A stretch of 43,404 nucleotides of DNA from Eledone cirrhosa (lineage: Eukaryota), in assembly GCA_964016885.1 (NCBI GenBank), contig CAXHJY010000806.1, positions 1 to 43,404 of the forward strand. Reading direction: 5' to 3'. The first letter of the stretch is position 1; the number at the start of each line of letters is the position of its first letter. The position numbers and the translations under genes were made by a program. This document shows, in pieces, positions 356 to 35,940 of the stretch. Below the pieces are notes generated by a model. The model had not been told where the DNA came from. It did not search any database and worked only from the letters and a program-made list of their open reading frames with translations.

Positions 356-505
356 GGGACTCATTTCTACAGCTGAGTAAACTGGAGCAATGTGAAATAA
401 AGTGTCTTGCTCAAGGAAACAACATATCACCCAGTCCGAGAATTGAACTCACAACCTTTCGATTGCAAGCCCAATGCTCTAACCACTAAGCCATGTGCCT
501 TCACA
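356..505 (-). mobile_element. tRNA-headed SINE fragment; same family as 27188-27445
   Basis: Reverse complement reads GAAGGCACATGGCTTAGTGGTTAGAGCATTGGGC...GAGTTCAATTCTC (A/B-box-like), then CCTTGAGCAAGACACTTTATTTCAC, matching 27188-27330. Confidence 0.75.
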
Positions 506-2863
506 GTGTATGAATATATATAAAGACCCCCTTTGGTCACAAATGACTATGGGTTTTGTACCTAGAAAGTTGTCCTCTGAAAGATGGAAATTGCTAGATA
601 AGAAATGCGAAAAAAGATACAAAATGTATGGAGGGAGATGATCAGGCACGGAGGATGGTTGCCTGAATGACTGAAGGGAGATAAAGTAGTGGACAACCAC
701 ATGAGAGGTTTGACAGTTTATTTCATATCACTGGTACCGTATTGTACTTCAGTACCCTTGGTGCATAAAGGCAGTAGCAACAAAGAGTGGCATGAGTTTA
801 GCAAAGTAGTAGAAGACAAATTAAGTAGGACAACAACAAACAGAGATGATGATTGGGATGGTACAGTTTGTGCAGCTTCAGTTGAAAATAGATAGATGTA
901 TGAGATGTGTTGATGATGAGGTTAGTAGCAGTGGGAGGGAACACACAAGAAAAGATTAGTTCCTTAATTGTATGGAATAGCAGTTGATTCTAGAGTATGT
1001 GATCTTTGGGTAACTTGTGATAGAAATTTGTATCACTGAGCTGTTTGAAAGCTTCCTCCTAGTAAAGCTAGGACCATTGTTGGGTGGTTTGATTCTGATG
1101 TCATTATTGCACCTGAAGTGCTGAAGTGTGCAGTGTTCATCAACAGGGATAAGTCATTTGAAATGCTTTTTAAAATTTAATACATTCAAATCTTGGCAAC
1201 ACTGAATAGGGTTGAACTGTCCCAAGTCAAGTGTCCATGTAGAGCAGCAATGTTAAACCTTGAAGTCAAAATAAACTAGCTTCAGTTTTTTTAATACACT
1301 ATAGTACAAGGTTCACTTTATCATGGCAACAACATTAGAGACACAAAAAGGTTTTCTCTACCCTATGTTGTCTCTGGCACCAGAAGATTATGTCACCCTC
1401 AGTAAATCTAAAAGGTGTTCTCTTTTCTATCTGCTGTCCCTATATATTTATTCAGATGGGGAGGGAGTCCGAGCAAGAGGGTGATAGAGAGTAACAGAAA
1501 AGAAGATTGAGGAAATGATAGATAGCTACATGAAGAGTATTGGTGAATAGAAACAGCATGAGTAGTGGGATAGGAATAGAGGGAGAGTGACAGGAAAGAA
1601 ACAGAGAGGGAATATTGCAAGTCTGAGAGAGTAACAATTGTCAACAATGAATGATAGAGTGTGGGGAGTAATATGAGTGAGTGACAGATAGCAATGGAAA
1701 TGGGTGATGGTAAGGGAATGATCAGTGTCAATCATGAGTGATAGGAAGGAAGTAATGGGAGAAAATGAAAGGGAGAGAGATTGATGGTTAGAAATAAGAA
1801 AAGGGATGATGATTAGTGGGGAATTGAATTAATTTAGAATCCAATATGATACCATCCCTCATTACACAGGCAGCATGAGGGCAGAGTGAGAACAGGGAAG
1901 GCAGAAGAGTGTGTGTGTGTATGGGGTGGGGGTGGGGGGATAAGAGACAATATGGATATTCAATACAGACTTAATAGTCAAGTGAGAGCAAAATATACAT
2001 ATTATACATTCTAAACTCCACCACCACCACCACCACCATCATTTTAAAGTCTATTTTTCCATGCTTGCATTGATTGGATAGGTCTTCTGCAACACAGTAC
2101 TTTGCTATGTATTACAATCCTTCATCAGTTCCTTTAAGATTAGTCTTTGCTACTTCATCCCACATCTTCCTTAGTCTTCCTCTCATTCACCAGGATGAGC
2201 ACTTCTTTAACACCCTACATCTGGTTTATCTTTATATTATAAATGCCATATAAAATGCTTTATATAAACCCTCTTCAGTGTATTTATATTATATAAATGA
2301 GTGTGTGTATGTATATATATATATATATATCTTCTTTAATTATGGTTGAATGCTCCATATTGGTGAAGACACACTGCTATAATAAGCATTGCCACCAACC
2401 CCAACCAGTCTACCACTGCTAATATCATTTGCTGATTGACTAGAAGTTAATGCCACATGTGGGATACCATCACCGACTTGAAAATTTAGTAGTAAGGTTG
2501 ATTTTTGAAATCCCTTCAAAGGACTATTGGCTAATGAGAATTGCCTTGTCCAGAATTTGCTGGTTATGGATTTATTATTAATCAATGACCAGTGGATTCT
2601 CCATGGAATTTGAAACAATACTGTACCAGCTTAGAAGTGGATTTTTTTTATTCTGACAGATTTTTATATGCTAAACTAGGAGGATGATGGCTGTTTCAAT
2701 TGTTGAAACGTGTTGATCTGTCGTTATAATAATTACAGTTTTCATAGCTTGTGCTTCTGACTTGGAATGTTGTCTTACAATTAATCCTATGCATGTGCTC
2801 CAAATGAATTTGTCGAGCAAATTGTAAAAGGGTCAAAATCCCTGGATATCAATTTAATTATAA

Positions 2864-3367
2864 ATCTTCAGCATGATGCTCAAGCAGGCCCCAGCAGATC
2901 TTGATGATGAGGATGGAGTCTATATCAACTACTGTCTTGATGGCAGCCTGTTTAATCTTTGTCAACTACAGGTTCAAACAAAGACCCTGGACTGATCCGA
3001 GACGTCCTCTTTGCCGACGATGTTGCTCTTGTTGCCCTCTTGTTGCATGGTTGAATGCTCCATATTGGTGAAGTCATGCTGCTATAATAAGCATTGCCAC
3101 CAACCCCAGCCAGTCTGCCACTGCTTTGTAGAGCATCACTTCCTGCTTCGCTTCAGCTTACACCTGAAGAAGGGTACCACCCTTCCTATATCACCATTGA
3201 TGAGTTCACCTACTGGGGGTAGATCGACAGGGAAATCAGTAACAGATTGGCAAAGGTGAGCAGTGCATTTGGTAGACAGTACAAATGTATGTGGAGCAAT
3301 AAACACCTAATGAAGGGTACCAAGATCAGAGTGTACAGAGCCATAGTCCTTACCACCCTCCTATATA
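2864..3367 (+). mobile_element. Degraded RTE-clade LINE reverse-transcriptase fragment
   Basis: Broken translation IFSMMLKQA..DLDDEDGVYINYCLDGSLFNL..LQ..TKT / IRDVLFADDVALVA / EISNRLAKVSSAFGR...W....L...TKIRVYRAIVLTTLLY, typical of RTE RT; frameshifts and deletions. Confidence 0.85.
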
Positions 3368-4408: not shown

Positions 4409-4444
<36 letters not shown>

Positions 4445-4445
<1 letters not shown>

Positions 4446-5081
4446 CAAAGGAATTGTGGTAAGGAACAAAATGGACCATAATGCACCAGAGTACTCAATA
4501 CTTAGGGTAGTAGAGTGGGAAATAGGAAAAAGTATGACCCCGACGGCAGAGCTCAAGCCGTTTCGACGGCTATTTCTGGACTAAATTAGAATTTTTAGCC
4601 TGGTGAATAAATAGCCGAACTTTTCAAGGGGGTACTTCCTTATATGGGAAGATTGTAGTTGTCAAGAGGATTGGTTAAAATTTGTTGTAAAAACAAATGA
4701 GTCTATTTGGTGGGTGGTAGGGGTGGCTGAACTTGCCTGTAGAACAATAGGGGAGTGAGTGGAGCGGTCAAGCAAGCGTTGAATGAAGTGGGGAGGGAGG
4801 TTATAGAATAGGTAAATCGAAAGAGAGTAGGAGACAATAAAAGATACTAGAAAGAAATTTAAAAAAAAAATAAATATATAAAATTAGATAGTAAGAAAAT
4901 GATAGACTTATTTGTGTTTACAACAAATTTTAACCAATCCTCTTGACAACTACAATCTTCCCATATAAAGAAGTACCCCCTTGAAAAGTTCGGCTATTTA
5001 TTCACTAGGCTAAAAATTCTAATTTAGTCCAGAAATAGCCATCAAAACGGCTTGAGCTCTGCCGTCGGGGTCATACTTTTT

Positions 5082-5086
<5 letters not shown>
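4445..5086. mobile_element. Penelope-like element remnant with inverted pseudo-LTRs (arms 4522-4706 and 4902-5086), inside a (TA)n tract
   Basis: 185-bp inverted repeat with about 6 mismatches and a 195-bp spacer; (TA)n on both flanks; each arm has a hammerhead fold. The Penelope assignment is inferred from this combination. Confidence 0.7.
4530..4637 (-). ncRNA. Type I hammerhead ribozyme motif with U3-A8 variant core
   Basis: Minus strand: AAGUACCCCC-[UUGAAAA]-GUU-CGGCUAUUU...AAAUAGCCG-UC-[GAA]-ACGGC-UUGAGCUCU-GCCGU-C/GGGG-UCA-UACUU. Helices I, II and III all pair; GUC cleavage triplet at plus 4542-4544. Confidence 0.75.
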
Positions 5087-5121
<35 letters not shown>

Positions 5122-5127
<6 letters not shown>

Positions 5128-5848: not shown

Positions 5849-6653
5849 GCACAGATGACTCTAGACCTCAACAACAACAATATAGCAACTATATATCAAT
5901 TAGGGATTGATAGAAATAATTCAATGTATATGTTTGAAAAGTGTTCATCTCTTGTGAAACTAAAGTAATACAGAGAATAGTATTATTAAATTGGAAGCAG
6001 TGATTCATTGATAAAAAATCACATAATTTGTTTATCTAATGGGCTATAGAAAATACAATCATATTGTATTTTATTGATGAAATATATATATATATATATA
6101 CTAATGCAGTGACTTGACAGAGATATTAGAATGTCAGTTTGAATGCTTTGCAGCATCATCCCTTTGAGGTTGATATAAAAATACCAGTCTAGTACTGGAG
6201 TGTATTTTTTTTCTATATCCCTTTTTCACTTCCTCTTTATCACTCTCTCTCCTCTGGAAGAAATCAGTTGTGTTAAGAACAGCCCAGCTCTCCTGGCAAG
6301 GGCTTTCCTATGTAAATCATAAAAACTATATATATATTGTTTGTATGTATATATATATATATATCAAAAATAATACACAATATGCTTCAAATATCCTTTA
6401 TCACTGAAATACAATCTTCATTGTTAATTATATATTAACAATAATGATGAGAAAAGAGTTAAAATAATGAGAGGTAGACACTATGTTAGTATTGTGGTTT
6501 ATGCTCTCTATTAAGACATATATAATAGTTATATATAGAGATAATAAGCTACATATAATAACTATAAGATACATATAATAGTTATATATAGAGAGACAAG
6601 ATACATATCGTAGTTACTGTCATGTAGAAATAAAATTACTAAACAACAATTAC

Positions 6654-6748
6654 CTTGCTCAAGGTTAGAATTCAAACCTACAGTAGAAGACTTCAGAGGA
6701 ATATTCCTTACATTTTCAGCCTTCAGATTTCTCCGTTGATGTTCCGGA
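6654..6748 (-). CDS. PIKFYVE: PIKfyve exon: PEHQRRNLKAENVRNIPLKSSTVGLNSNLEQ
   Basis: TTTAACTTCAG acceptor, AAG/GTAATT donor, 95 nt, phase 2-1; last exon I can place confidently. Confidence 0.82.
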
Positions 6749-7073
6749 CTGAAGTTAAAATAACATAGATTTATGATAACAAAGCAATGTTGCAAATATT
6801 TTTAATAGTTTCTTGAAATAAAAAAATATATTTTCTACAACTTTCGGATCTGAATTGGTAACTCCAGCACCCCTTGTAGGATGTGATTAAATGAGCAGAT
6901 CTCCTCACACCTTTTTTTCTTATGGAAATATTTATATATAAAAAAAGAAAATTGTATATGAGCTAAAATATGCAACCACTGCCTGGGAAATACTTTAGTG
7001 CTGTAATTTGTTCCCCCAGCACAACATGGATATAGGGACATGATATATAATTTAGCAAGTGGCTTGAACTTAC

Positions 7074-7151
7074 CTTGCTGATGGAGAATCTCTTTGTACA
7101 GGACCAAGATGACTTTGAATTTCTTGGAGACGACTATGATAATCTCGAGAA
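7074..7151 (-). CDS. PIKFYVE: PIKfyve exon: SRDYHSRLQEIQSHLGPVQRDSPSA(S)
   Basis: CTTTTTATCACAG acceptor, AAG/GTAAGT donor, 78 nt, phase 2-2. Confidence 0.92.
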
Positions 7152-7456: not shown

Positions 7457-7552
7457 CTGAGAGCATACGCAATTATGGAGCTTGGTTCTGTATCATAGAC
7501 AATTACAGGAATACGTTCACATTTAGCCAGTAGAGGATGTTCATGGGCTTCA
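7457..7552 (-). CDS. PIKFYVE: PIKfyve exon: (F)EAHEHPLLAKCERIPVIVYDTEPSSIIAYAL(S)
   Basis: AATTGTAG acceptor, CAG/GTAAGA donor, 96 nt, phase 2-2; EPSSIIA(Y/F)ALS is a FAB1-family hallmark. Confidence 0.96.
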
Positions 7553-8383
7553 CTACAATTACACAGATTATGGGAAAATATGACTAGATATTCTTTCAAT
7601 ATATCTAGAAAGATACATTATGAAAAGAGTTGGTATGAAACTAAACACTTTAGTCTATTTCCTCCATCATTAATGCATAACACTTTAACAAGACATTCTT
7701 TATCATCATCATCATCATGCTAGCAAGAGTTGGACGGGTCCATACAGATCAAGTCAGTACTAAAGCAGAGTCCCTGATCTCACAGGTAGGCCAGAGATCT
7801 GTGTCTCGCTTATGTATGGTCTCATATTCCATTGAGTGCTCAGGAGAGGTTATCATGTCATTGAGACAACTGAGGGTCCTCCCAACACTGTTTGGCAAGA
7901 TTTCTATGGCTGGATGCCCATCCTATCACCAACCACTTCATAGCGTGTACTGGGTGTGTTTATCTTGTAAATCAGCAACACTAGGGAAGTTGTCATGTCC
8001 TTGACATGACTGAAGGGTCCTCCCGACAATCTTGAAAAGTAAAACATAGCACTAGGACTTCATAACATTAAAAAATAAAGTCTTTAATTTAGTTTACTGC
8101 AAACATTTTTGGAATGATCTCTCCATTAGTAAAGATTCTATAGACATTAGAATTAACAAACCTATCTTTAACTATTTTCATTACAGGATGTAATTACAGA
8201 CAGTAACATTTACAGGAGCATACTCTTCATATAAATTCTGCTAATTGATGTTAATTAGTTCAATTTTTCAATAGCAAAAATTGAATCATTATCAATTAAT
8301 CACCTACATTTTAAGTTGTTTTTTACAGATGTTTATCCTAATACGTTCATATTTATCTAAAAGCCTTTCATTATAATTTTATG

Positions 8384-27128: not shown

Positions 27129-27187
27129 CTACAGAAAGGGAGAGAAAAAAGATAAAAAGCCATTTTTTAGACAGCTGAGTGTGATTG

Positions 27188-27445
27188 TGAAGGCACATGG
27201 CTTAGTGGTTAGAGCATTGGGCTTACAATCATCAGGTTGTTAGTTTGATTCCTGGACCAGGTGGTGTGTTGTGTCCTTATGCAATACACTTTATTTCACA
27301 TTAGTCCAGTTCACTCAGCTGTAGAAATGAGTTGCATGTCACTGATGCCAAGCTGTATTGGCCATTACCTTTCCCTTAGACAACATCGGTGGCATGGAGA
27401 GGAGCATGCATGGGCAACTACTGGTCTTCCACATCACCCATCATA
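27188..27445 (+). mobile_element. tRNA-headed SINE (second family)
   Basis: TGAAGGCACATGGCTTAGTGGTTAGAGC A box, GTTTGATTCCTGG B box, body CACTTTATTTCACATT..CACTCAGCTGTAGAAATGAG; minus copies at 356, about 19180, 26450 and 28600. Confidence 0.8.
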
Positions 27446-28636: not shown

Positions 28637-31600
28637 TGCTAGAAATAACAGCTAAATAAGACAGCTACTTCAGCTAAATAGGGGAAACCTCATGGAGGTC
28701 CATAGGTGTGCTAGATATAGCAGCTGAATAAGGGCAACATCATGATGGTCCATAGGTGTGCTAGAAATACCAGCTAAATAGGGGCAACCTCATAATGGTC
28801 CATAGGGGTGCTAGAAATAGTAGCTAAATAAGGGGAACATCATGGTGGACTATAGGTGTGCTGAAAATAGCAGATAAATAAGAGAAAACTCGTGGTCCAT
28901 AGCTGTGCTAGAAACATCAGCTAACTTGTGGTAACCTCATGGTGGTTAATAGGTGTGCTGGAAATACTGGCTAAATAAGGGGAACATCATATGGTCTATA
29001 GGTGTGCTAGAAATAACAGCTAAATAGAGGGAACCTCAAAGTATTCTAAAGGTGTGCTAGAAATAGCAGTTAATAGGGGGAACCTCATGGTGGTCAATAG
29101 GTTGCTAAAGAAAGCAGATATATAGAGGGAACATCATTATGGTCCATAGGTATGCTAGAAACATCAGCTAAATAGGAGGAATCTCATGGTTGTCCATATG
29201 TGAGATAGAAACAGAAGCCAAATAGATGTAAACTCATGGTGGTCTATAGGTGTGTTAGAAATAGCAGCTAAATAGGGGGAACCTTATAGTGGTTCATAAG
29301 TGTTCTAGAAATAGCAGCCAATAGCAGGAACCTCAGCGTGCTCCATAGGTATGCTAGAAATAGCTGCATAATAGGGGGAACTCACAGTGGTCCATAGGTG
29401 TGCTAGAAATAGCAGTTAATAGAAGGAACCTCATGGTGGTCAATAGGTGAGCTAAAAAAAGCAGTTATATAGGGGGAACATCATGATGGTCCATAGGTGT
29501 TCTAGAAATAACAGCTAAATAGGAAGAACCTCATAGTGGTCCATAGGTGTGCTAGAAATAGCAGCTAAATAGGGGGAACCTCATGGAGGCCCATAGGTGT
29601 GCTAGAAATAGCAGCTGAATAGGAGGAACTTTATGATGGTCCATAGTTGAGTTAGAAATAGCAGCTAAATAGGGAGAACCTCATGGTAATCCACAGGTGT
29701 GTTAAAAATAGCAGCTAAATAGCGGCAACCTTATAGTGGTCCGTAGGTGTGCTAGAAATAGCAACTAAATAGAAGAAAACCTCATGGTGGTCTATAGGTG
29801 CGCTAGAAATAGCAGTTGAATAGAGGGAATCATGGTGGTCCATAGGTGCTAGAAATAGCAGCTATATTTTGGGAACCTCACGGTGGACTATAGTTGTGCT
29901 AGATATAGCAGCTAAATAGGAGGAGTCTCATGGTGGTCCATAAGTATGCTAGAAATAGCAGCTAAATAAGGGGAACATCATGATGGCCCATAGGTGAGCT
30001 AGAAATAGATGTAACCTCATTGTGGTCTACAGGTGTGTTAGAAATAACATCAAAATAGGGGGAACCTTATGGTGGTCCATAGGTGTGCTAGAAATAGCAG
30101 CTAAATAATTGGAACCATAAGCTGGTCAATAGATGTGCTAGAAATAGCAGTCAAATTCAGGAACCTCATGGTGTTCCATAGGTATGCTTGAAATAGCTCC
30201 AAAATAGGGAGAACTCACAGTGGTCCATAGGTGTGCTAGAAATAGCAGCTACACCAGCTAAACAGAGGAAAGCTCCTGTGGTCCATAGGTGTTCTAGAAA
30301 TAGCATCTAAATAGGGGGAACCTCATGGTGGTCTATAGGTGCTAGAAATAGCAGCTACTTCAGCTATGGGGAACATCATGGTGGACCATAGGTGAGCCAG
30401 AAATAACAGCTAACTAAGGGAACCTCATGGAGGCCCATAGGTGTGCTAGAAATAGCTCGATTATGGACCATCATAAGGGAGAACCTCATGGTAATCCATA
30501 GGTGTGTTAGAAATAGCAGCTAAATAGGGGCAAATTTAGAGTGGTCCGTAGGTGTGCTAGAAATAGCAGCTAAATAGAAGAAAACCTCATGGTAGTCTAT
30601 AGGTGTGCTAGAAATAGTAATTTAATAGGGGAATTCATGGTGGTCCATAGGTGTGCTAGAAATAGCAGCTAAATAGGAGGAACCTCATGGAGGTCTATAG
30701 GTGCATTAAAAATACTTGCTAAATAAAGGGAACATCATGATGGTCCATAGGTGTGCTAGAAGTAGTAGTTAAATAAGGGGAACCTCATGGTGGACTATAA
30801 ATGTGCTGAAAATAGCAGATAAATAAGAGAAAACTCATGGTGGTCCATAGCTGTGCTAGAAACATCAGCTAAATAGTGGGACTTCATGGTTGTCCATAGG
30901 TGAGCTAGAAATAGAAGCTAAATAGATCTAACCTCATGGTGGTCTATAGGTGTGTTAGAAATAGCATCAAAATAGGGTGGTCCATAGGTGTTTTAGTAAT
31001 AGCAGCTAAATCATTGGAACCTTAAGGTGGTCAATAAGTGTGCTAGAAGTAGCAGCCAAAATCAGGAACCTCATGGTACTCCATAGGTATGCTAGAAATA
31101 GCAGCTACACCAGCTAAACATAGGAAAGCTATTGTGGTCCATACGTTTTCTAGAAATAGCAGCTAAATAGGAGGAACCTCATAGTGGTCCATAGGAGTGC
31201 TAGTAATAGCAGCTACATTAGCTAAAGAGAAGGAACCTAATAGTGGTTCATAGGTTTGTTATAAATAGCAGCTAAATAGGGGGAATCTCATAGTGGTCCA
31301 TAGATGTGCTAGAAATTGCAGCTACTTCAGCTAGGGAGAACATCATGGTGTGCTGGAAATAGTAGCTAAATAGGAATAATCTCATGCTGGTCCATAGGTG
31401 TGCTAGAAATAATAGCTAAATTTTGGGAATGTCATGGTGGACTATAGGTGAGCCAGAAATAACAGCTAACTAGGGGAACCTCTTAGTGGCCCATAGTTGT
31501 GCTAGAAAAAGTAGCTGAATAGGAGGAACCTTATGATGGTCCATAGTTGAGCTAGAAATAGCAGCTAAATAGGGAGAACTGTAGGTGTGCTAGAAATAGC

Positions 31601-33085
31601 AGCTATATTTTGGGATGGGAACCTCATGGTGGTCCATAGTTGTGCTAGATATAGCAGCTAAATAGGAGGAACCTCGTGGTCTATAGGTGTGTTAGAAATA
31701 CTAGATAAATAAGAGGAACATCATGATGGTCCATAATTGTGCTAGAAATAGCAGCTAAATAGGGGGAACCTCAAAGTGGTCTAAAGGTGTGCTAGAAATA
31801 GCAGTTAATAGGGGGAACCTCATAATGGTCCATAGGGGAGCTAGAAATAACAGCTAAATAAAGGGATCCTTATGGTGGACTATAGGTGTGCTGAAAATAT
31901 CAGATAAATAAGAGAAAACTCATGGTGCTCCATTACTGTGCTAGAAACATCAGCTAAATAGTGCAAACCTCGTGGTAGTTAATAGGTGTGCTAAAAAAAG
32001 CAGTTATATGAGGAACATAATGATGGTCCATAGATGTGCTAGAAATTGCAGCTAAACAGGAGGAATCTCATGGTTGACCATAGGTGAGCTAGAAATAGAA
32101 GCTAAATAGATGTAACCTTAGGGTGGTCTATAGGTGTGTTAGAAATAGCATCAAAATAGGGGGAACCTTATGGTGATCGATAGATGTGCTAGAAATAGCT
32201 AAATAATTGGAACCTTAAGGTGGACAATAGGTGTGCTAGAAATAGCAGCCAAAAGCAGGAACCTCATGGTGCTCCCTAGATATGCTAGAAATAGCTGCAA
32301 AATATGGGGAACTCGCAATGGTCTATAGGTGTGCTAGAAATAGCAGCTACACCGGCTAAACAGAGGAAAGCTCTTGTGGTCCATAGGTGTTCTAGAAATA
32401 ACAGCTAAATATGAGGACATCATAGTGGTCCATAGGTGTGCTAGAAATAGAAGCTAAATGGGGGGGAACCTCATGGTGGTCGATAGATGTGCTAGAAATA
32501 GCAGCTACATCAGTTAGGGGGAAACTCATGGTGGTCCATAGGTGTGTTAAAAATAGTAGCTAAATTTGCAGAACCTCATGCTGATCCATATGTGAGCTAG
32601 AAATAATAGCTAAATTTTGGGACCGTCATGGTGGACCATAGTTGAGCCAGAAATAACAGCTAACTAGGGGAACCTCTTAGAAATAGCAGCTAAATATGGG
32701 AAACATCATGATGGTCCATAGGTGTGCCAGAAATAGCAGCTAAATAGGGGGAACCTCAAAGTGGTCTAAAGGTGTACTAGAAATAGCAGTTAATAGGGGG
32801 GACTCATAATGGTCCATAGGTGCGCTATATATAGCAGTTAAGTAGGGGGAACTTCATAGTGGCCCCTAGGTATTCTAGAAATAGCATCTAAATAGGGGGA
32901 ACCTTAATGGTGGTCCACAGGTGTGCTAGAAATAGCAGCTACATCAGCTAAACTGGGGGACCTTATAGTTATCCATAGGTGTGTTAGAAATAGCAGCTAA
33001 ATATGGGAAACACATGGTGGTCCATAGGTGTACCTGAAATAGCAGCTAATTAGGACGAATCTTATGGTGGTCCATAGGTGTACTA
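28637..33085 (+). repeat. Intronic satellite, ~50-bp unit, roughly 90 diverged copies
   Basis: Consensus GGTGGTCCATAGGTGTGCTAGAAATAGCAGCTAAATAGGGGGAACCTCAT. Confidence 0.97.
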
Positions 33086-34800: not shown

Positions 34801-35940
34801 ACAGTTAAAGAGGGTGCTAAAAATCTGATGACACTCCAACAAAAGGACAGAGGGTACTGAATCCCTGATGACACCCCAATACAGTTAAAGAGGGTACTGA
34901 ATGACTGATGACACCCCAATACAGTTAAAGAGGGTACTGAATGACTGATGACACCCCAATACAGTTAAAGAGGGTACTGAATCACTGATGACACCCCAAT
35001 ACAGTTAAAGAGGGTACTGAATGACTGATGACACCCCAATACAGTTAAAGATGGTACTGAATCACTGATGACACCCCAATACAGTTAAAGAGGGTACTGA
35101 ATGACTGATGACACCCCAATACAGTTAAAGATGGTACTGAATCACTGATGACACCCCAATACAGTTAAAGAGGGTACTGAATGACTGATGACACCCCAAT
35201 ACAGTTAAAGATGGTACAAAATCCCTGATGACACCCCAATACAGTTAAAGATGGTATTGAATCACTGATGACACCCCAATACAGTTAAAGATGGTACTGA
35301 ATCACTGATGACACCCCAATACAGTTAAAGAGGGTATTGAATCACTGATGACACCCCAATACAGTTAAAGAGGGTACTGAATCACTGATGACACCCCAAT
35401 ACAGTTAAAGATGGTACAAAATCCCTGATGACACCCCAATACAGTTAAAGATGGTATTGAATCACTGATGACACCCCAATACAGTTAAAGAGGGTATTGA
35501 ATCACTGATGACACCCCAATACAGTTAAAGATGGTACAAAATCCCTGATGACACCCCAATACAGTTAAAGAGGGTACTGAATGACTGATGACACCCCAAT
35601 ACAGTTAAAGATGGTACTGAATCACTGATGACACCCCAATACAGTTAAAGATGGTATTGAATCACTGATGACACCCCAATACAGTTAAAGATGGTACAAA
35701 ATCCCTGATGACACCCCAATACAGTTAAAGAGGGTACTGAATGACTGATGACACCCCAATACAGTTAAAGATGGTACTGAATCACTGATGACACCCCAAT
35801 ACAGTTAAAGAGGGTACTGAATCACTGATGACACCCCAATACAGTTAAAGATGGTACAAAATCCCTGATGACACCCCAATACAGTTAAAGATGGTATTGA
35901 ATCACTGATGACACCCCAGTACAGAAACAGAGGGTACTGA
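34801..35940 (+). repeat. 40-bp minisatellite, 28.5 copies
   Basis: Unit ACAGTTAAAGA(G/T)GGTA(C/T)TGAAT(G/C)ACTGATGACACCCCAAT, exact 40-bp phase with no indels. Confidence 0.98.

Follow-up and report, generated by a model that had tools for sequence, protein, structure and literature searches.

Head-to-head ends of a Hydra-type Penelope-like element with a predicted hammerhead motif in a probable PIKfyve intron of Eledone cirrhosa

The closest described relatives of the element reported here are the Penelope-like retrotransposons (PLEs) of the Hydra clade (Craig et al. 2021, PMC8557442); comparisons with this and the other papers cited refer to their accessible portions. The layout in which a 5'-truncated PLE copy lies next to an inverted 5'-truncated copy has already been published there, with Penelope-13_HM in File S1 as a Hydra-clade case, and the same paper names the formation of tandem and inverted PLE structures as unresolved. 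It also lists Hydra-1_Obim from Octopus bimaculoides. The family studied here resembles the Hydra clade in its putative C-terminal GIY-YIG domain without CCHH, its DKT and CxCX5C motifs, the CxxC and CxH motifs near the end, its (TA)n targets, and the presence of a predicted 3' hammerhead. It differs from the clade in several respects. The Hydra-clade hammerheads in File S2 all have a C3-G8 pair, whereas our family has U3-A8, combined with a stem II that is long and two-tiered and a stem III of 5 bp capped by a 9-nt loop. This hammerhead is also unlike the one listed for Hydra-1_Obim. Furthermore, the clade's RWK motif reads RWR in the parent element, the unit measures 3.1 kb compared with generally <3 kb, and the tail has 77 nt compared with the 30-40 given in PMC8557442.

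Hammerheads of metazoan PLEs, including Cercyon of Schistosoma, were described by Cervera and De la Pena 2014 (PMC4209133). Our motif is likewise a predicted type I hammerhead located in the pLTR, and two of its features have precedents in that work: the U3-A8 covariant, described for a Schistosoma PLE, and dual hammerhead motifs on opposite strands, ~100-700 bp apart. According to the same source, metazoan PLE hammerheads are mostly minimal and require dimers, whereas stem III of the motif reported here is computed to form as a monomer (pairing 0.94-0.98).

In vitro evidence comes from Poseidon of Anolis carolinensis (Frangieh et al. 2024, PMC11167929), which belongs to a different clade and shares the preference for AT-rich targets. 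The purified protein of this element cuts and extends the two strands of the target, and the tail is accounted for by a pair of internal start sites on the RNA, which bound it. The Poseidon hammerhead cleaves only with protein and is dispensable for insertion. The count of one tail per pair and the stop within stem II that we describe below come from genomic copies of our family; the accessible part of PMC11167929 gives no such counts for Poseidon. Finally, animal non-LTR retrozymes (10.64898/2026.07.22.740005) have in common with our element a type I hammerhead and a link to PLEs. They consist of tandem non-coding units, whereas the locus described here contains a truncated piece of a coding PLE.

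Our literature search for inverted Penelope insertions formed by twin priming on both strands found no paper, and a second search, for an intronic hammerhead with an antisense inverted repeat, found none on the idea by title; most subscription papers were outside the coverage of both.

Here, we analyzed the whole of a 43,404-nt contig from Eledone cirrhosa (GenBank CAXHJY010000806.1; "the window," contig C833), in which a sequence-only reading had noted an inverted repeat that could act as a built-in antisense lock on a ribozyme. Our preferred reading, to which we give a probability of roughly 0.8, is that two 5'-truncated 3' ends of a Hydra-type PLE stand back to back in (TA)n, that they were likely primed from both target ends on the same RNA, and that the predicted silencing of the hammerhead probably arose as a side effect, without selection. 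The locus itself is ordinary, and the family data are modestly useful for understanding how tandem and inverted PLE structures form.

Anatomy of the insertion and its parent element

The repeat is the first listed of 397 inverted pairs in the window and consists of two 185-nt arms (4522-4706 and 4902-5086), which are 97% complementary and separated by 195 nt. The sequence-only reading gave a repeat of ~185 bp with about six mismatches; this is confirmed, the exact count being six (4564/5044, 4567/5041, 4602/5006, 4639/4969, 4692/4916, and 4699/4909). Its span of 4522..5086 is right for the repeat but misses the left end of the element, because the 77-nt tail is part of it. Compared with the family majority, the left arm carries two private changes and the right arm four, at 4969, 5006, 5041, and 5044.

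Judged by sequence comparison, the repeat is a single insertion of a Hydra-type PLE, made up of a 5'-truncated copy and an inverted 5'-truncated copy (Table 1). The whole insertion maps by blastn onto the 3' end and tail of one parent element, L047. From left to right it reads (TA)n, the tail, a minus-strand copy of parent positions 2694-3101, an abutting plus-strand inverted copy of parent positions 2914-3101, and (TA)n. The tail corresponds to parent sequence beyond the short 3' end, leading towards the ORF. The left copy has a short deletion at the junction (7 deletion-form vs 86 full-form matches in the examined loci, duplicates counted), and the length of the microhomology at this point is uncertain.

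Two other classes of element were considered and rejected. The arms derive from the 3' end of a parent that encodes an RT, are truncated to varying extents, and have unequal outer ends, which excludes a MITE or fold-back DNA transposon. The locus contains no tandem array and its sequence maps to a coding PLE, which excludes a non-LTR retrozyme. A separate 71-nt inverted pair, 5084-5154/5249-5319, which is partly (TA)n, adjoins the element.

Table 1. Features of the insertion and the nearest PIKfyve exons in the window
Feature	Position	Strand	Basis
(TA)n target microsatellite, left side	4412..4444	.	Tandem repeat scan; family copies finish in (TA)n
77-nt PLE tail, left arm only	4445..4521	-	93% identity to parent
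5'-truncated PLE 3' end (pLTR part; left arm and spacer), parent 2694-3101	4522..4902	-	blastn to L047:6900-10000, 85% with indels; genome search
Type I hammerhead-like motif, U3-A8 core, long stem II with second hairpin	4526..4640	-	MFE fold, positions, 63-copy comparison
Inversion junction, microhomology 1-4 nt	4899..4902	.	Comparison of junction with parent
Inverted 5'-truncated copy, parent 2914-3101, tailless, hammerhead core broken (G12>A, 5044)	4902..5086	+	97% to parent
(TA)n target microsatellite, right side	5084..5124	.	Tandem repeat scan
Probable extra PIKfyve exon	7074..7150	-	AG/GT borders, in-phase reading; tblastn weak, E 0.27-1.9
Nearest well-supported upstream PIKfyve exon	7459..7560	-	tblastn with P0001, 65% identity, E 2.8e-6; GT donor after

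The parent L047 is located at C3:359.491-359.495 Mb and has a period of 3,096 bp between its pLTRs. It runs from a partial pLTR (6605-6904) through the ribozyme, the tail, and a broken ORF to a second pLTR (to 10000), and it thus displays the PLE hallmark of an RT ORF between direct pLTRs. Two further hallmarks are present in the window, namely 5' truncation with a neighboring inverted 5'-truncated copy and an optional tail at a single end (77 nt, left arm).

The frames of L047 encode RWR, DKT, YRDD, a CxCX5C linker, VIY..YIG without CCHH, CxxC, and CxH. Its N-terminal frame has 347 homologues, of which the best 120 are ~520-970 aa long, many with PF26215. At the RWK position, the aligned homologues have RWK, RWR, or RWT. 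The VIY..YIG motif is in place, and the Pfam match to PF01541 is weak (E 0.022, 15.5 bits, below the cut-off of 22.6). Among the features of the Hydra clade, L047 has DKT, CxCX5C, no CCHH between GIY and YIG, and CxxC plus CxH around a conserved E and N; insertion into (TA)n, another trait of the clade, is seen at both ends of the window element and in most family 3' flanks. The element is likely a Hydra-type PLE, a placement that stops short of proven clade membership, and it is a new PLE family member carrying a putative U3-A8 hammerhead.

A second, much younger Hydra-type PLE family was first met in L042:5304-6710 and includes L213 (C2:65979159-65983568), L214, L231, L234, L235, and L239. 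It yielded 91 scored matches with 97-100% identity (the query's own locus counted). Its members have 821-aa open frames, a CUGAUGA hammerhead near the 3' end, and (TA)n ends, and head-to-head pairs occur among the matches listed.

Frequency and form of the inverted arm in the family

Genome-wide counts of exact 30-mers gave 13,298 matches for the 3' half of the ribozyme and 531 for its 5' core, compared with 0 for the reversed-pattern controls. Family copies finish in (TA)n either at the short end (17/30) or after the 77-nt tail (13/30). Two samples of loci were assembled. The insertion sample comprises the 85 consecutive loci represented by the first 100 listed matches of the 3'-half 30-mer, in the first 29.4 Mb of C1; the whole-ribozyme sample comprises the first 40 consecutive loci listed among the 531 5'-core matches, also on C1. 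Both are restricted to C1 and anchored on exact 30-mers, which favors young or unmutated copies, and two-armed insertions were drawn with double chance in both, so that the rates given here are somewhat high.

Of the 85 insertions, 68 have an inverted piece of the family directly adjoining the 5' end, and 2 have one downstream. Both arms reach the 3' end in 48 pairs; one tail is present in 45 of these, none in 2, and two in 1. Arms consisting of tail only were found on tailless partners in all 12 cases. At the 40 5'-core loci, the upstream inverted piece covers the whole ribozyme at 17, part of it at 9, and other parts of the element at 4, and it is absent at 10; full cover from the downstream side occurs at 1 of the 40. 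Two of the 17 fully covered loci, L177 and L188, look like separate older insertions. Extrapolation from 17/40 and the 531 exact matches indicates that the genome likely has a hundred or more comparable whole-ribozyme pairs.

Most copies are shorter. Seventy-one of the 85 anchored copies break off within stem II and have no 5' core, and 154 of 192 arms (loci L080-L164) stop at parent positions 3030-3049, inside stem II of the ribozyme. The catalytic 5' half is thus missing from most family copies, and reverse transcription likely halts at the stem II hairpin. The outcome of these stops is thousands of palindromic mini-insertions of ~120-200 bp without the 5' catalytic core (13,298 vs 531 exact matches).

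The two window arms are 3.2% apart, compared with a median of 5.0% over 19 pairs, and 7 of the 19 pairs are at <=3.3%, which places the window pair towards the lower end of the range. The nucleotide at N7 is concordant in 17 of these 19 pairs; the two discordant pairs are non-abutting and 14-18% different. An additional N7-discordant pair was noticed among the 5'-core matches listed (C2:3798646/3798948). L178, L177, and L188 represent a diverged and older subfamily that has G at N7; in one L178 pair, the arms differ from the majority at 19 shared positions but from each other by 0.8%.

The predicted hammerhead, its antisense arm, and PIKfyve

Read on the minus strand, the left arm has U3 at 4627, G12 at 4564, and C17 at 4542, and cleavage is predicted to fall between 4542 and 4541. 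The core sequence, UUGANAA (U3-A8), departs from the canonical CUGANGA and is followed by GAAA and GUC. The MFE fold is a three-way junction (z -2.4), and 5 of 200 shuffles folded equally well. In this predicted fold, the left arm has the features of a type I hammerhead: a 3-8 pair, G12 A13 A14, A15.1-U16.1, H17, and three helices. Stem I is weak, with a computed pairing of 0.11-0.56. An Rfam scan of the window (E<=1) returned no hammerhead; it returned low-complexity microRNA matches and a tRNA-like repeat instead. The tRNA-like match (432-495, minus strand, 30.8 bits) is part of a dispersed repeat that recurs at 27186-27332 and is likely a tRNA-derived SINE head.

G12 is the general base of the hammerhead, and the right arm lacks it. 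The sequence-only reading ascribed this loss to two CpG-type transitions. Both CpG-site G>A changes are indeed present in the right arm, but the one at 5044 alone removes G12, and the one at 5041 breaks a stem II pair. In the family, G12 is altered in 8 of 63 long copies, and copies differ at 6.4% of CpG sites compared with 3.7% of other sites. Polymorphism of at least 15% in the 63 long copies is limited to N7 and one loop column, and in a sister family the corresponding position is occupied by a canonical CUGAUGA core. Both observations favor a real ribozyme, with putative activity, in the source elements. Copies starting at the predicted cut gave 219 matches, compared with 24 and 34 at two control positions, an excess of at most about twofold, because a five-G slippage form makes up ~2/3 of the 100 listed.

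The host gene was identified as PIKfyve through a PDB match for one of two exons tried, through homologues, and through tblastn; a Pfam search of 42 window ORFs detected no PIKfyve domain. With three PIKfyve homologues as queries, tblastn located minus-strand exons in the window, spanning 42943 to 7459. A search of the segment that separates the element from the end of the contig detected no credible PIKfyve exon. The gene is split over three contigs, with the N-terminal exons on C1657, those of the window on C833, and the kinase exons on C3 (104.146-104.156 Mb, 7-17 kb from a 200-N gap). The exon preceding the kinase exons lies near C3:104,156,130-104,156,215, ~7 kb from the gap. The window and C3 have only repeats in common, and their arrangement is suggested by gene order, which would place C833 and C1657 in the gap at C3:104,162,967. 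The element is likely intronic in PIKfyve, in sense orientation, as judged from gene order and the gap rather than from continuous sequence. Within C1657 and the C3 part of PIKfyve, no other ribozyme-bearing family copy was found. One tail-only family fragment, in L033, lies beyond the gap. The minus-strand segment 6187-6307 of the window is bordered by AG/GT and has a faint similarity to PIKfyve (E 0.057) and an in-frame stop; it is perhaps a chance match or an exon with an assembly error.

In computed folds, forcing the hammerhead costs 1.2-2.3 kcal/mol when the partner arm is absent, and the cost rises to about 130 kcal/mol when it is present. The earlier proposal that the duplex would sequester the hammerhead thus holds in calculation, and transcription of the stretch as part of a PIKfyve intron is predicted to let the arms pair and to leave the ribozyme unable to fold. 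It is also correct that, in the direction in which PIKfyve is transcribed, the antisense arm precedes the ribozyme arm. However, in a head-to-head geometry the antisense arm comes first from either direction, so this order is uninformative about PIKfyve.

The further suggestion, that such a lock may explain the tolerance of a sense-strand ribozyme, is not supported. The partner arm is the family's normal insertion product (68/85, with whole-ribozyme cover at 17/40), the window arms diverge like those of other pairs, and G12 is lost in 8 of the 63 long copies. The antisense lock is likely a by-product of the element's insertion and not a safety lock evolved for the host gene. Protection of the host intron may not even be needed: according to PMC2995048, which cites Dye 2006 and Fong 2009, introns cleaved by a hammerhead are reportedly still spliced efficiently, and PLE hammerheads are described as weak (PMC4209133) or protein-dependent (PMC11167929).

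Selection might nevertheless act as a sieve on insertions whose geometry is purely mechanical, such that working sense-intronic ribozymes persist mainly when silenced by an inverted arm, with the window locus as a survivor. If this were true, insertion geometry would decide which ribozyme insertions genes tolerate. We regard such a sieve as improbable. It is consistent with the computed abolition of the fold by the duplex, with the intact core of the window copy, which is read in sense and fully covered, and with the apparent constraint on the core in family source elements. Also in its favor, vertebrate retrozymes are reported to be under-represented in introns once size-normalized, although ~43% of copies are intronic (10.64898/2026.07.22.740005). 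Against a sieve, full cover is common anyway among the 5'-core loci, and the core is intact at 8 of 17 fully partnered compared with 5 of 10 unpartnered loci, a weak comparison of loci unsorted by genic status. The reported compatibility of intronic cleavage with splicing and the weak or protein-assisted action of PLE hammerheads, cited above, also argue against it. Because the sampled loci are unsorted into intronic and intergenic, selection limited to sense-intronic copies would be invisible in them. Support for the sieve here goes no further than the computed fold.

Origin of the two arms and the question of editing

If the insertion was primed from both target ends, as we prefer, the GIY-YIG domain would cut both (TA)n strands. 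One cDNA would begin at a distal RNA site, producing the tail, and the other at a proximal site; both would end early and then join via microhomology. The arms would drift afterwards, with CpG decay striking G12 in one of them. The 45 of 48 pairs with one tail, together with the shared subfamily of the two arms and the many non-nested arms, fit a model in which synthesis is primed from both ends of the target and begins at two fixed sites on the RNA. In several pairs (L127, L184, L198, L203, and L209), neither arm is nested in its partner. The tailed arm is often the shorter one; in such pairs neither arm can have been copied from the other, and both need RNA.

The same element could have arrived at this form by another route, in which the cDNA folds back at a microhomology and copies its own 3' part, or in which an arm is duplicated after insertion. 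At the window locus, the right arm is nested in the span of the left copy, so that fold-back copying is possible for this locus taken alone, and the two arms share N7 and meet through 1-4 nt of microhomology. Family-wide, however, the often shorter tailed arm is not derivable from its partner, and the tailless arm stops at the same fixed site as solo copies. In addition, PLE protein in purified form has been shown to cut the two strands and extend both, starting from two sites on the RNA (PMC11167929). A fold-back or a later duplication therefore appears quite improbable to us.

The sequence-only reading had also raised the possibility that editing or unwinding gates cleavage. In animals, A-to-I editing mainly targets young inverted repeats, and a 185-bp duplex of a young repeat is a typical ADAR substrate (10.1101/2020.01.19.911685); ADAR editing of the arms is plausible, as for any such duplex. 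That the duplex serves as a regulated switch, opened by ADAR editing or unwinding so that the ribozyme can cut the PIKfyve pre-mRNA, is a different matter and seems to us very improbable. Such a switch would have to bridge a gap of ~130 kcal/mol, and editing would presumably also strike the core adenosines. The duplex is unexceptional, as five more inverted pairs (>=100 nt, within 3 kb, 70-84% identity) occur in introns of the same gene. A search for fossil A>G editing in 157 family alignments found 0 skewed copies.

That the inverted repeat is an assembly artefact from a fold-back read, an idea encouraged by the unplaced contig and the division of the gene among three contigs, has next to no probability, given that both arms bear private changes relative to the family majority, that the outer ends are unequal with unrelated flanks and (TA)n at either end, and that dozens of the loci sampled on a chromosome-scale scaffold have the same layout.

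Other repeats were noted in the PIKfyve region. A further inverted pair, 11604-12028/13233-13647, spans 431 nt at 84% identity, with its arms ~1.2 kb apart. PIKfyve introns also contain two minisatellites: a diverged array with a 50-bp unit, repeated ~80-88 times and showing higher-order structure, at 28671-33085 and a 40-bp array of 28.5 units with a 91% match at 34801-35940.
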